A stretch of 38,136 nucleotides of DNA from an uncultured Ardenticatenaceae bacterium (GTDB lineage Bacteria > Chloroflexota > Anaerolineae > Promineifilales > Promineifilaceae), in assembly GCA_964421605.1 (NCBI GenBank), contig CAYQYJ010000005.1, positions 1-38,136 on the forward strand, written 5' to 3'. Below, piece after piece: positions 4,135 through 38,136 of the stretch; the stretch's first letter is position 1; each line of letters begins with the position of its first letter. The notes under the pieces were generated by a model. The model did not search any database. It saw only the letters and a list, made by a program, of their open reading frames with translations, and was not told the DNA's origin. The position numbers and the translations under genes were made by a program.

Positions 4135-6293
<2,159 letters not shown>

Positions 6294-19604: not shown

Positions 19605-19633
19605 TTGACTCGTTAGAACTTATGTTCTAAACT
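19605..19633 (+). promoter_or_regulatory. Sigma-70-type promoter with an embedded LexA (Cheo-type) SOS box
   Basis: TTGACT (19605-19610), a 17-nt spacer, then TAAACT (19628-19633). The spacer contains the 18-bp palindrome TTAGAAC-TTAT-GTTCTAA (19613-19630), which fits GAAC-N4-GTTC. Confidence 0.6.
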
Positions 19634-19728
19634 TCTGCTGTTCATTATCTATCCTTACCCTGATCGGCGCTGTCAATCAGCGGTTGGTCTTGCCAAAAAT
19701 CTTCCCACCAAACAAGGAGAACCCCGCC

Positions 19729-20484
19729 ATGAAACTTGGATACCGCGTGCAAATTGCCATTGGCGTAGCTGATCTGGCGGAGTCATTAGATTTTTATCGC
19801 CGGCTGGGGTTTGTGGAGGTGGCTGCCAGCCACGAGCCGTATCCCTGGGCGCAGTTGACAGATGGACAGAATCTTATCTTGCTCAATCAGGATGGCATGA
19901 GCTATCGGGGCTTGATTTATTTCAGCGATGATGTGGCGGCGCGCGTGCGGCATATTGAAGATGCCGGCATCCCCTTCATCCACAAAACAGAACACAACGG
20001 TCAGGTAGTGCAGGCTATCCTCTACAACGACGCGCAGCAATTTGGCGTCAATCTGCTGGCTCATGACGCCAGCGACCTGTACCAACCCACAGGCGAACCC
20101 GTCACCCGCTGCGGTAAATTTGGCGAATTTGCCATTCCCGTCGCCAACATTAGAGACGCCTACGACTTCTGGCACACCCTCGGCTTTGCCAGGTTGGGCG
20201 GCAACTTTGACCCGGCTACGGGCGAAAGCGACGGCAGTTGGGGCCCTTACACCTGGGGTATCATTTCTGATGGGCTGATGGTGCTGGGCTTACACGAAAC
20301 GACTGATTTCAAAGAACCGACGTTGACCTATTTTGCCGGCAATCAAGCTGAAACCCTGGCGCAGCTCAAAAACGAAAACTTCACCTTTACCTTTAGCTCG
20401 CCTGATGAAAATGGCGTCGTGGCTAATGCCGGCCTGGCTGCCCCCGATGGGCAAAAACTCTTCCTGTTTCAGGGTGAAATATGA
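19729..20484 (+). CDS. VOC-family (glyoxalase/bleomycin-resistance/dioxygenase fold) protein, two-domain
   Basis: The ATG at 19729 lies 8 nt after AAGGAGA. The N-terminus KLGYRVQIAIGVADLAESLDFYRRLGF is typical of VOC proteins, and a second repeat has RDAYDFWHTLGF. Confidence 0.8.
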   Translation: MKLGYRVQIAIGVADLAESLDFYRRLGFVEVAASHEPYPWAQLTDGQNLILLNQDGMSYRGLIYFSDDVAARVRHIEDAGIPFIHKTEHNGQVVQAILYNDAQQFGVNLLAHDASDLYQPTGEPVTRCGKFGEFAIPVANIRDAYDFWHTLGFARLGGNFDPATGESDGSWGPYTWGIISDGLMVLGLHETTDFKEPTLTYFAGNQAETLAQLKNENFTFTFSSPDENGVVANAGLAAPDGQKLFLFQGEI

Positions 20485-21326
20485 CCACACTGCACGAAGC
20501 TGTACACCAACTCGCCCAGGTTACCCAATCATTCAGTGAAGCAGACCTTGACCGTGACTGGACGTGGCTTTATCACGATGAAGGCGTACGCTTCGCCCTT
20601 ATTGGAACCTACCACGAACTGCGCACCCTGGCTGTGACCGTGAGCAATATCTGGCAAACGCAGCCGCGCCCGCCAGCGCAGCACGCCCTGGCGCAATTCC
20701 ACGCCGCTTTCCGGGAATTGGAAGCCGTCCTCCTCAGCGCCAACACAACCCTGCTGGACACCCGCCCCGCCCCCGAAGAATGGCCGCTGCGCATCATTCT
20801 GGGACATATGCTCTTTGTAAATCGCGGCTTCTTCACCCAGATCCACTATGCGCTGCACCGTGACCCATCCGACCCGCGCGATGCCCCGCCCACATACAGT
20901 GAGCAACTGCTAGGCAGCGACGGCGACATGGAATCGCTGCTGGACAACACCGATCTGGACGGCATTATGGCCGCCTTCACCGCCCTGCACCACCGCATCC
21001 TGGACGAACTGGCTGGCCTGACGCCCGCGCAGTTAGCCGTCCATACCTGGTGGTGGGAAGAGGCGGACATTCCTGTCTCCTTCCGGCTACACCGCTTTGA
21101 CGCCCATTTGCGACAGCACACTATCCAGGCAGAGAAAACGTTGGCGCAGCTAGGCTACCCGCCTGGCGAAGCTCACCAATGGCTGCGGCTCGTCTATCAG
21201 GCGTTGGCAGAAGTGGAAGGCTGGCAAATTGGCGCGCCACACGTCGGTGTAACAGAATGCCAGGCGGCAGCGAGCTTAATTGCCGCACGGGCGCAGGAAA
21301 TCAGCCGCCTCGTAGCCGGCGGCTGA
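20481..21326 (+). CDS. DinB-family (DinB_2-like four-helix bundle) protein
   Basis: ATGA overlap with the VOC gene. The length and spaced His residues (ILGHMLF, LHRFDAHLRQH) resemble DinB/YfiT-like metalloproteins. Confidence 0.7.
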   Translation: MTTLHEAVHQLAQVTQSFSEADLDRDWTWLYHDEGVRFALIGTYHELRTLAVTVSNIWQTQPRPPAQHALAQFHAAFRELEAVLLSANTTLLDTRPAPEEWPLRIILGHMLFVNRGFFTQIHYALHRDPSDPRDAPPTYSEQLLGSDGDMESLLDNTDLDGIMAAFTALHHRILDELAGLTPAQLAVHTWWWEEADIPVSFRLHRFDAHLRQHTIQAEKTLAQLGYPPGEAHQWLRLVYQALAEVEGWQIGAPHVGVTECQAAASLIAARAQEISRLVAGG

Positions 21327-36327: not shown

Positions 36328-36360
36328 AGAGTACAAAACTCTTTGAGACTTTTGTACTCT
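36328..36360. repeat. 33-bp AT-rich palindrome (family member B)
   Basis: AGAGTACAAAACTCT-ttg-AGACTTTTGTACTCT has 15-bp arms with one mismatch. It begins 15 nt after the stop of the 73-aa ORF. On the minus strand its arm matches element A in 14 of 16 positions. Confidence 0.8.
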
Positions 36361-36375: not shown

Positions 36376-36597
36376 CTAGGATTCACGCCCCACCCAGAAA
36401 TGATGCAGTATGACATTGCCGGCAGGCCGTACCTGAACCTGATCCACTTGCTGCGTTTCTGCCAGCATGGCTTTGTTCACCAGGCACAGTTCGGGCGACT
36501 GACCATACTTATCCCGGTAGTACGCCACAGCCCGCTTGACCTTTTCTTCCAAAGAGCGAGATTTGTCATCATCCAACCATAACATACCCGTAATCAT
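36376..36597 (-). CDS. Small hypothetical protein (73 aa), partner of the FtsK-like ATPase
   Basis: The ATG at 36597 lies 8 nt after GGAG. Codon usage is coding-like. It is on the same strand, 66 nt downstream of the ATPase stop. No family recognised. Confidence 0.6.
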   Translation of the reverse strand: MITGMLWLDDDKSRSLEEKVKRAVAYYRDKYGQSPELCLVNKAMLAETQQVDQVQVRPAGNVILHHFWVGRES

Positions 36598-36663
36598 GTT
36601 GCACACTCCAAATGATAGTTCAATTCCATCCGGCCTCTGGCTGCTGGAGCCGATTGCGGCCGG

Positions 36664-37782
36664 CTAATGCGACGGGCTTAATTCGTCCAGATGGGGTCGC
36701 GTAGACAACGGATAAGCTGTTAACCTGGTTGTTGGCTGCCGTAACAACCAGTGGAGACAGTTGTCCATGTCCTGGCGATTAAAAGCCGCCGCCTGGAATG
36801 GCGTCGGCTCATCGCCCACAATAGCCAGAAAATCGCCTCCGCCCAGCAGATACTCAGCCTGGGAATCAGCAATGGCCGCGGCGGCTTGCGCCTGGCGCGC
36901 ATCTTCCACCTGTCCCACCAACCGTAGCGTAAGGTTGGCGCGCAGCAGATTATGCAGGCTGTCGGCGCCGGGGCGGCGGGTGGCGGTGAGTAGATGAATG
37001 CCGGCATCCGCCCCCCGCTGCGCCAATCGGATCAGGGGATCAAGGACAGGCTGACCGCCATCCTCCAGCAATGACACCAGATGATCCACCACGACCACAA
37101 TAACGGGCGCCTCAATCTTTTGCCGCAGGCGGTATTCCATTTCCTGCGCCAGGAACGCCAGCGTATCCGCCGACTCGGTAACCTGGCGCATGACGGGGGC
37201 CAGCATGTGGGGCAGATAATTAAAGGAATCCCAGGCCGAGGCCCCGGCAGCCCAATCGCCAGGGACATAATCAATCACTAGCAGTTGTAGGCGCGCCTGG
37301 CGGTTGGTCAACGCCAGAGATAACGCCATCGTTTGTAAGAGCGTGGTTTTGCCGGCATTCTCCCGCCCACAGACCAACACGTGCGTCACATCCCCTTGCT
37401 GCAAATCCAGCACCACCGGCTGTCCTTCTGGCGTCAACCCCAAGACCGCCGTGGCTGGCGGCAGTTCAGGCACGTACTTCAACAGCGCCAACAGCGCCAC
37501 CGGATAATCCTCGGTGGCGTCTGGCCAATCCCATTCCTGGGTTGGCGCCGCTGCTGCCGCCTCTGCCCCGCCCAGCGATTGCAGCGCTTGCTGGCCCATT
37601 GCCCACAGCCGCTGCCATCCCAGTTTTACCTGTTGGGTTACGTCACGAGCAGTTAAGGGCTGAACGTCGCGATTAACTGGTTCCAGGGACGCGCCAGCCA
37701 CGTCCATGGCCCACGCATATTGCCCTGATTCTTCCGCTGTCGGCGGTTCTTTCCAATTTGATGGGGAGCGCTGCTTTGTCAT
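36664..37782 (-). CDS. Soluble FtsK/SpoIIIE-like P-loop ATPase
   Basis: Walker A is VCGRENAGKTT and Walker B-like is PVIVVVVDHL. GIHLLTATRRP and AEYLLGGGDFLAIVG follow the FtsK_SpoIIIE motor-domain pattern. No TM segments and no obvious gamma domain. Start is ATG at 37782, with an alternative GTG at 37845. Confidence 0.8.
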   Translation of the reverse strand: MTKQRSPSNWKEPPTAEESGQYAWAMDVAGASLEPVNRDVQPLTARDVTQQVKLGWQRLWAMGQQALQSLGGAEAAAAAPTQEWDWPDATEDYPVALLALLKYVPELPPATAVLGLTPEGQPVVLDLQQGDVTHVLVCGRENAGKTTLLQTMALSLALTNRQARLQLLVIDYVPGDWAAGASAWDSFNYLPHMLAPVMRQVTESADTLAFLAQEMEYRLRQKIEAPVIVVVVDHLVSLLEDGGQPVLDPLIRLAQRGADAGIHLLTATRRPGADSLHNLLRANLTLRLVGQVEDARQAQAAAAIADSQAEYLLGGGDFLAIVGDEPTPFQAAAFNRQDMDNCLHWLLRQPTTRLTAYPLSTRPHLDELSPSH

Positions 37783-37892
37783 GGCATCTGACCATATTCC
37801 TATTCCTTGAAGCCTATCAAAATTACCCTCTCTCTCCAGTGGCACAACAGGGAGTATGTGGCCGTGAGGATAACATCACGATATTCCGCAGA

Positions 37893-37921
37893 ATCATAGA
37901 ACATTTGTTCTCATTCGTCAA
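37893..37921 (-). promoter_or_regulatory. Sigma-70-type promoter with an embedded LexA (Cheo-type) SOS box
   Basis: The minus strand reads TTGACG (37921-37916), the 17-nt spacer AATGAGAACAAATGTTC, then TATGAT (37898-37893). The palindrome AGAACAAATGTTCT (37898-37911) fits GAAC-N4-GTTC. Confidence 0.6.
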
Positions 37922-37981: not shown

Positions 37982-38018
37982 CCCCAAACAAAACAGGCGG
38001 TTGACGCACCGCCTGTTT
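37982..38018 (-). terminator. Rho-independent terminator
   Basis: The minus strand reads AAACAGGCGG-tgcgtcaa-CCGCCTGTTT followed by TGTTTGG. This gives a GC-rich stem core followed by a T-rich tract. Confidence 0.6.
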
Positions 38019-38085
38019 GACTCCAATCTATATTTGGCTGCGTTTTACAGCTTTACGTATGGGCGCAGCCCGCCCGTTGAATTTT

Positions 38086-38136
38086 TTATGAGGTCTGCCG
38101 CAGCACCATCACCACTTTGCCTTGTACTGTCACGTC
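38086..38136 (-). CDS. 3' end of a truncated gene; the tail resembles a LexA (S24 peptidase) C-terminus
   Basis: The open frame at the window edge reads ...DVTVQGKVVMVLRQTS-stop (TAA at 38086-38088). The pattern D-V-x-V-x-G-K-V-V-x-V-x-R resembles the last strand of Gram-positive and actinobacterial LexA proteins. Only 16 residues are visible. Confidence 0.3.
   Translation of the reverse strand, partial: DVTVQGKVVMVLRQTS

Follow-up and report, generated by a model that had tools for sequence, protein, structure and literature searches.

A lexA-linked two-gene unit in Chloroflexota with a predicted LexA operator, encoding a putative FtsK-type pseudo-translocase and a small conserved protein

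In the FtsK motor proteins of Escherichia coli and Pseudomonas aeruginosa (2IUS, 2IUU and 6T8B) an alpha domain is followed by a RecA-like beta domain that carries the P-loop. Canonical division FtsK also has an N-terminal membrane domain, a linker and a gamma domain (a winged helix, KOPS/XerD). In E. coli the SOS response also induces the division protein, by way of the dinH promoter of ftsK (PMC4080785). Here we describe a two-gene unit in a 38,136-nt stretch of DNA from an uncultured Ardenticatenaceae bacterium of the Chloroflexota (contig CAYQYJ010000005.1; this whole stretch is termed the window). The unit lies next to lexA, and encodes a soluble FtsK-like ATPase of 372 aa and a protein of 73 aa. 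The ATPase shares with FtsK the P-loop and the order of alpha and beta domains, and differs from it in the absence of the membrane domain, linker and gamma domain, and in replacement of the catalytic glutamate and of the residues R620, K657 and R661. Whereas E. coli induces the division protein itself, the window ATPase appears to be a dedicated SOS paralog. The best overall explanation is that the unit is an SOS operon repressed by LexA, the products of which are a pseudo-translocase and a small core protein, and on the sequence comparisons we regard this as probable. The part that concerns regulation and the identity of the proteins is very likely to be correct.

Comparison with other systems is informative. 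The degenerate ATPase domains D2 and D3 of EccC and EssC in type VII secretion are FtsK-type P-loop domains that do not work as motors but have regulatory or substrate-binding roles, with small proteins as their binding partners. The window ATPase resembles them in belonging to the FtsK/SpoIIIE family, and in its probable character as a non-catalytic P-loop accessory. However, EccC and EssC are membrane-anchored chains of several ATPases encoded in secretion loci, and the window unit is not accompanied by secretion genes, a transmembrane (TM) segment, an FHA or DUF domain, or a WXG100-like partner. ImuA and ImuA′ of the imuA-imuB-dnaE2 cassette have a RecA fold with degenerate catalytic motifs and act as non-enzymatic accessories; the SOS cassette that encodes them is often located near lexA. 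The window ATPase would likewise be a degenerate accessory with a RecA-like fold in an SOS cassette near lexA. Unlike ImuA (which is RecA/SulA-like) it has the FtsK alpha-beta architecture, and neither the window nor any related locus examined contains a gene for ImuB or DnaE2.

The SOS-induced division inhibitors YneA, SosA, DivS, ChiZ (Rv2719c), SidA and SulA offer a third comparison. The window unit is similarly specific to a lineage, located beside lexA, predicted to be controlled by LexA and provided with a small candidate effector, and its four-gene relatives (see below) also include a small protein with two TM segments. The likeness is one of genomic logic only. There is no similarity in sequence, the small protein of the window is soluble with neither TM segment nor LysM domain, and an FtsK-derived partner is absent from all of these inhibitor systems. 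In the literature searched we found no description of a lexA-linked unit of ATPase and small protein, nor of DUF6504, a domain encountered in related cassettes. In the original prediction (made from the letters of this DNA), too, no SOS-induced cytoplasmic FtsK-like ATPase pair was known to have been described.

The predicted LexA operator and conservation of the locus

All features of the unit are on the minus strand, and coordinates are given as positions in the window. A promoter scan identified TTGACG-17-TATGAT at 37921-37893 (-35 hexamer at 37916-37921, -10 hexamer at 37893-37898), which matches the consensus at 10 of 12 positions. The last 12 nt of the 17-nt spacer are filled by the palindrome GAACAAATGTTC (37899-37910, assigned to neither strand), which abuts the -10 hexamer and is identified as a putative LexA operator (i.e. 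an SOS box, GAAC-N4-GTTC) from its sequence and its conservation. The open reading frame (ORF) of the ATPase (36664-37782) starts about 100 nt downstream of the promoter. A gap of 66 nt separates it from the ORF of the small protein (36376-36597), which has a GGAG ribosome-binding site 8 nt upstream of its ATG. The promoter, the position of the palindrome within its spacer and the two genes are all as originally predicted.

There are two perfect GAAC-N4-GTTC sites in the 38-kb window where 0.45 would be expected, and 7 of 100 shuffled sequences also reach two. The count by itself is weak, and the case for SOS control rests on comparative data. Scanning one genome per species with an alignment of the small protein gave 80 loci, all in Chloroflexota (Ardenticatenaceae, Promineifilaceae/Leptofilum, Anaerolineae and Anaerolineales). 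An FtsK-like gene precedes the small gene in 60 of the 80 by tblastn, and in 70 using a hidden Markov model (HMM). Among the loci with the pair, lexA is directly upstream on the same strand in 49. Every one of these 49 has a box GAAC-N4-GT[TG]C with no more than one mismatch after the lexA stop codon; 17 are perfect and 32 have a single mismatch, mostly as GAACAnATGTGC. Most lie directly behind the T-tract of the lexA terminator, some 60-75 nt from the stop. The one-mismatch box GAACAnATGTGC is typical of most Promineifilaceae/Leptofilum loci (L003-L054, e.g. L014 at 4700-4760), where it is found about 12 nt past the T-tract and 25-35 nt before the start codon.

Taking all the promoter regions that could be assessed, a box with at most one mismatch is present in 63 of 72, compared with 11.5% of control windows (random 350-nt windows from the same loci). 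Of the nine misses, several are spurious and come from the way ORFs were called or from truncated contigs. The box is also retained where the genes are not linked to lexA. One or two boxes are directly upstream in L060, L063, L064, L066, L068, L069, L074, L077 and L078, where two are often present, and in L083, L085 and L086. In three loci that have the small gene alone (L010, L017 and L079) there is a box directly upstream of it. The same motif precedes every lexA gene found, consistent with autoregulation by LexA. The conservation in relatives of the gene order and the box, which the original prediction had proposed as a check, is borne out by these counts.

Related loci share the gene order ggt, lexA, ATPase, small gene, SBP gene, rsmG. 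The rest of the window contains housekeeping genes, encoding among others recF, rsmG, lgt, IMPDH, CTP synthase, ABC transporters and the CCA-adding enzyme, and no integrase, transfer or phage gene was found in it or in about 50 related loci. The earlier concern that the pair might always be embedded in a prophage or an integrative and conjugative element is answered by these neighbours (ggt, lexA, the SBP gene, rsmG, recF, IMPDH and CTP synthase). Pairwise identities co-vary, with Spearman coefficients of 0.75 for the ATPase and the small protein, 0.55 for LexA and the ATPase, and 0.48 for LexA and the small protein. Such covariation fits inheritance of the three genes together by vertical descent, and it is tightest between the ATPase and the small protein. 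Their co-evolution is strongly supported by the comparison, as is vertical inheritance of the putative operon within Anaerolineae-type Chloroflexota. Because the box is conserved and the unit is not found in mobile elements, control of the predicted two-gene unit by LexA is strongly supported.

The lexA gene is cut by the edge of the window, leaving the last 16 codons and the TAA stop (38086-38136, minus strand), translated as DVTVQGKVVMVLRQTS. Over its last 12 residues, QGKVVMVLRQTS, the tail is identical to the complete LexA encoded by L001 (3294-3971), the closest related contig (that LexA ends …APEDVLVQGKVVMVLRQTS), in which Peptidase_S24 (7e-26) and LexA_DNA_bind (1.6e-14) domains are found. 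On this basis the ORF is the end of lexA, as its tail had suggested. A hairpin follows it at 37985-38019 on the minus strand (CAAACAGGCGGT-loop-ACCGCCTGTTTTGTTTG), with a calculated RNA folding energy of -19.1 kcal/mol, z=-2.5 and a short T-run. The prediction of a terminator in this position was upheld in part. The hairpin is there, and a clear terminator, consisting of a GC-rich stem followed by T8, is seen at the equivalent position of orthologous loci, but a strict scan for terminators made no call here on the minus strand. At the other end of the unit a perfect 11-bp inverted repeat, AGAGTACAAAA-11 nt-TTTTGTACTCT (36328-36360, minus strand, read directly from the sequence), lies 16 nt past the stop codon of the small gene, without a T-run. 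It probably marks the end of the transcription unit, and may be a terminator or a regulatory hairpin.

The second perfect site in the window, GAACTTATGTTC at 19616-19627, is 56 nt upstream of another pair of genes at 19684-20484 and 20481-21326, both on the plus strand. These encode a protein of the glyoxalase/bleomycin-resistance fold (PF00903, 4e-7) and one of the DinB_2 superfamily (PF12867, 3.5e-11), and this pair is probably a second SOS operon.

The FtsK-like ATPase

The 372-aa protein matches PF01580 with E=2.9e-23 (82.9 bits, where the cutoff is 24), the family that had been expected for it. When its family is compared as a profile with 2IUS, the motor of E. coli FtsK, the alignment extends over both the alpha and beta domains (E=7e-58). 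An AlphaFold2 (AF2) model has pLDDT >90 for the beta domain, and residues 1-43 and 71-89 are disordered. The top structural matches of the model in Foldseek are the FtsK motors 2IUS and 6T8B (E=4e-20, 26-27% identity), with TcpA and EccC next. The N-terminal section of about 150 aa had been thought unique to this protein. It aligns with the FtsK alpha domain both in the family profile against 2IUS and through relatives at 40-45% identity that still match PF17854, and we have rejected the idea that it is a novel domain; from these alignments it is a decayed alpha domain, in part disordered. There is no hydrophobic segment in the protein (the maximum KD19 is 1.46, on the Walker B strand), in line with the absence of a membrane anchor noted from the start. 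No match to Ftsk_gamma was found, and the chain ends about 30 residues past the beta domain. Both the N-terminal membrane domain and the gamma domain are absent.

The state of the motor was examined by aligning 120 homologs to a reference segment of E. coli FtsK, using the residue numbers of PaFtsK. In the cryo-electron microscopy structure of FtsK bound to DNA, R620 is the arginine finger, R632 and K643 belong to loop II, and K657 and R661 to loop I (PMC7321959). The window ATPase has a Walker A motif GRENAGKT, the lysine of which is kept in all 120 listed homologs. Its Walker B motif reads VVVVDH, so that Asp is kept and the catalytic Glu has become His, confirming the substitution noted originally. 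The arginine finger R620 is Ala. In loop II the equivalents are retained (R632 as Arg, K643 as Arg), and in loop I they are lost (K657 to Ala, R661 to Gln).

These replacements are a property of the clade. All of the 94 nearest relatives (P0001-P0094) retain the P-loop Lys, and nearly all of them the Walker B Asp. By contrast the catalytic Glu is replaced in about 90% of them, mostly by Asn and in the others by Asp, Lys, His, Arg, Gln or Gly; none of the 94 has Arg at the position of the arginine finger, and R661 is mostly Leu or Gln. Deeper branches with the two-gene arrangement are devoid of the Walker A motif altogether, and read GQDDMVLAT / LHDLG. A group of homologs of 320-400 aa (P0095-P0120) keeps the Lys, the DE of Walker B, the arginine finger (His in a few), and the equivalents of R632, K643 and R661, and does not keep K657. 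Calculated against L001, dN/dS is 0.135 for the ATPase gene and 0.031 for the small gene, showing that both are under purifying selection and that the ATPase gene is not in decay.

Since the whole clade shares the loss of catalytic residues, the window ATPase is probably no translocase, i.e. it is a pseudo-translocase rather than a motor. The residues for nucleotide binding (the Walker A Lys and Walker B Asp) are retained on alignment. The loss of motifs together with purifying selection indicates that the conserved function would need nucleotide binding at most, and not translocation driven by hydrolysis. Some database entries label relatives of the ATPase as "DNA translocase FtsK". The protein should not be filed in this way, because it has neither the catalytic Glu nor the arginine finger, and neither the anchor nor the gamma domain.

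We note that many homologs of the ATPase (e.g. P0041, P0078, L027 and L063) have long acidic or proline-rich C-terminal tails of low complexity. These end in short aromatic-acidic motifs of the type QYDLFDDD or DLDLFEDD, which look by eye like peptides of the clamp-binding or SSB-tail kind. In the window protein such tails are missing.

The 73-aa protein and related cassettes

The small protein has no match in Pfam, NCBIfam, PHROGs or PADLOC, in accord with the earlier view that it belongs to no recognisable family. It nevertheless has many relatives. There are 77 close homologs at 48-93% identity, and when homologs with E<=1e-3 are grouped at 50% identity the family has at least 2391 clusters. 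Every member that carries a name is a "hypothetical" protein of Chloroflexota. An AF2 model with pLDDT 91.3 has a beta-alpha-beta4 topology, i.e. a strand and a helix followed by four strands. Twelve residues are invariant (M5, W7, D9, K19, R22, A23, Y27, Y31, G32, C38, H66 and G70), and from the alignment and the model K19, R22, Y26 and K30 form a conserved stripe along the single helix. The isoelectric point is 6.7, near neutral, and there is no basic tail. No TM segment (maximum KD19 0.32) and no match to LysM or SulA was found. Weak structural matches to FtsA, FtsZ and the HK97 capsid have probabilities no higher than 0.3, and were disregarded.

Some members of the family are extended. P0298 has a Lys/Ala-rich tail like that of histone H1, and the homologs in L081 and L087 are among members in which the C-terminal tail is rich in Lys and Ala or in Arg. 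At the C-terminus of P0330 there is a weak GIY-YIG-like domain (E=0.006, which falls short of the Pfam threshold), and P0338 has a second, partial copy of the family domain. P0298, P0330 and P0338 are single metagenomic proteins. The tails and the GIY-YIG-like extension hint at an action on DNA.

The small gene is also found in larger cassettes. In L081 (3009-6342) and L087 (3048-6166) lexA and its terminator are followed by a promoter of the form TTGAC-box-TATGAT with a second box, and then by the gene for the motor. After it come genes for a predicted 2-TM protein of 142-147 aa, a DUF6504 protein, and a homolog of the small protein of 84-89 aa that matches the family HMM with E=6e-28 and 2e-22 respectively. 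The same four genes with two boxes are found in L085 (4001-6048), where they are not adjacent to lexA; the 2-TM protein is 131-147 aa across the three loci. The motors of these four-gene cassettes are soluble FtsK alpha-beta proteins and are catalytically intact in their motifs. The original prediction needs correction here, in that more distant relatives are found by alignment to carry an intact motor within a LexA-boxed four-gene cassette. A three-gene form (ATPase, DUF6504 and small protein) is present in L060, L073, L074, L078 and L080. A profile search with DUF6504 returned only "hypothetical" or "DUF6504" proteins of Chloroflexota, providing no functional lead.

In other loci one or other component is missing. 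In L010 (5097-6210) and L017 (5130-6210), both from Ardenticatenaceae, the small gene comes directly after lexA, with a one-mismatch box in the interval, and an FtsK-like gene is missing. Loss of the ATPase is evidently compatible with retention of the box ahead of the small gene. The small gene is absent from L086, where a perfect box overlaps the start region. L083 has a stand-alone gene for an intact FtsK alpha-beta protein of 322 aa (P0108, 2728-3696) with two perfect boxes upstream (2649-2691). Its neighbours are thyX, a beta-CASP nuclease gene and BFN-domain genes, and there is no gene for the small protein within 4 kb.

The series of four-, three-, two- (as in the window) and one-gene forms has the small protein as its constant element, and the lineage of the window would hold a reduced form with a dead motor. 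As judged from these arrangements, it is the 73-aa protein, rather than the ATPase, that makes up the conserved core of the predicted SOS cassette. The association in deeper lineages of an active motor with a 2-TM protein and DUF6504 suggests an ancestral auxiliary FtsK machine that was induced by damage and tethered to the membrane.

Possible function and alternative explanations

LexA bound inside the spacer of a promoter blocks RNA polymerase, and after DNA damage the self-cleavage of LexA that is stimulated by RecA relieves the block. As the operator sits in the promoter spacer, LexA would be expected to occlude RNA polymerase at the promoter of the two-gene unit, and damage leading to self-cleavage of LexA would derepress the ATPase and the small gene. 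Once made, the dead FtsK paralog could form an ATP-bound ring that does not move, or an adaptor, either on DNA or within assemblies of native FtsK. Together with the small protein as effector it would delay or gate the late stages of segregation and division, or mark damaged DNA, until repair is complete. This functional reading, of a static ring or adaptor, is drawn from the anatomy of the proteins and is put forward tentatively. A more specific version is doubtful. In this the hydrolysis-dead paralog joins the native FtsK ring and stalls it, or replaces it on DNA, with the 73-aa protein as effector or adaptor; the unit would be a checkpoint device, and the small protein a universal SOS core of Chloroflexota with a new fold. 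Such a checkpoint would have evolved by decay of the ancestral damage-induced auxiliary FtsK motor cassette.

A number of observations weigh against the explanation that we prefer. A few members of the clade keep the Walker B Glu, and the Asp that replaces it in some relatives might support slow hydrolysis. Some DNA binding may persist in the window ATPase through the two basic residues kept in loop II. In many orthologous loci, including most of those from Promineifilaceae/Leptofilum (L003-L054), no canonical -35 and -10 hexamers are visible around the box. A Foldseek search with the 73-aa protein gave no significant fold match (best E=1.0 in the PDB, and 0.016 to an unnamed entry in BFVD). 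One alternative is that the ATPase is an active soluble translocase of double-stranded DNA that moves or clears DNA after damage, and that the small protein takes over from the gamma domain as its specificity or regulatory subunit; a damage-induced translocase was the first of the roles originally suggested. The motor fold and family and the intact Walker A are as required for this, E. coli ftsK is SOS-induced (PMC4080785), and the LexA-boxed relatives in P0095-P0120, L081, L085 and L087 keep DE, the arginine finger and the equivalents of R632, K643 and R661. For the protein of the window we nevertheless think it quite unlikely, given the change of Glu to His, R620 and K657 to Ala and R661 to Gln, the partly disordered alpha domain, the loss of the arginine finger in 94 of 94 nearest relatives and of Walker A in the deeper two-gene branches. 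It is also rather unlikely that the unit is a repair accessory with no part in division or segregation. Here the small protein would be the active component, either as a modulator of RecA or LexA in a role like that of DinI or RecX, or as a binder of DNA ends or lesions, with the dead ATPase as loader or scaffold. The retention of a LexA box by the small gene alone in L010, L017 and L079 is in favour of this, as are the conserved stripe of K19, R22, Y26 and K30, the Lys/Ala-rich, histone-H1-like or Arg-rich tails of P0298 and the L081 and L087 homologs, and the weak GIY-YIG fusion (E=0.006). Yet the small protein has no similarity in sequence or structure to DinI, RecX or any known repair factor; that of the window is without a basic tail at pI 6.7, and the evidence from fusions comes from single metagenomic proteins.

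The remaining explanations would remove the unit from the SOS response, or make its position an accident. Conjugative elements, phages and defence systems can all encode FtsK-like ATPases, the window ATPase has partial matches to PHROG FtsK-like families and to SspH and mads8 of PADLOC, and TcpA and EccC are among its structural neighbours. The unit might on this evidence be a mobile-element, anti-phage defence or toxin-antitoxin-like module that is beside lexA by chance, and a domesticated mobile-element function had been considered earlier. We judge this very improbable. The phage and defence matches cover just the generic core of the ATPase, the housekeeping synteny is kept in about 50 species-level genomes, the window has no integrase, phage or transfer gene, identities co-vary with those of LexA, and purifying selection is strong. 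We reject the toxin-antitoxin, defence and mobile-element readings in view of the genomic context and the inheritance of the unit, which point to vertical descent among housekeeping genes. That GAAC-N4-GTTC is a chance match, or belongs to lexA only, so that the two genes are not SOS-regulated, is less credible still. The number of sites in the window (2 against 0.45, reached by 7 of 100 shuffles) is not decisive, and many of the orthologous sites have the one-mismatch form with GTGC, but position and sequence are kept in 49 of 49 syntenic loci, the frequency of 63 in 72 far exceeds the 11.5% of the controls, and the box persists in operons at a distance from lexA.

Almost no work has been done on the SOS regulon of Chloroflexota, and the carriers of the unit are mostly uncultured. 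This analysis defines a conserved lexA-linked cassette built around a large family of small proteins that is absent from Pfam, and reveals a clear succession of forms in evolution, which begins with an intact FtsK-type motor and ends with a putative nucleotide-binding pseudo-translocase on which purifying selection still acts. It offers at the least a well-defined set of targets for experiments in cultured Anaerolineae, i.e. the operator, the two proteins, and their active and inactive natural variants. If the unit does act as a checkpoint of segregation or division, it would be a mechanistically new type among the SOS division inhibitors, and an example of a dead paralog of a hexameric motor that is used as a regulator.

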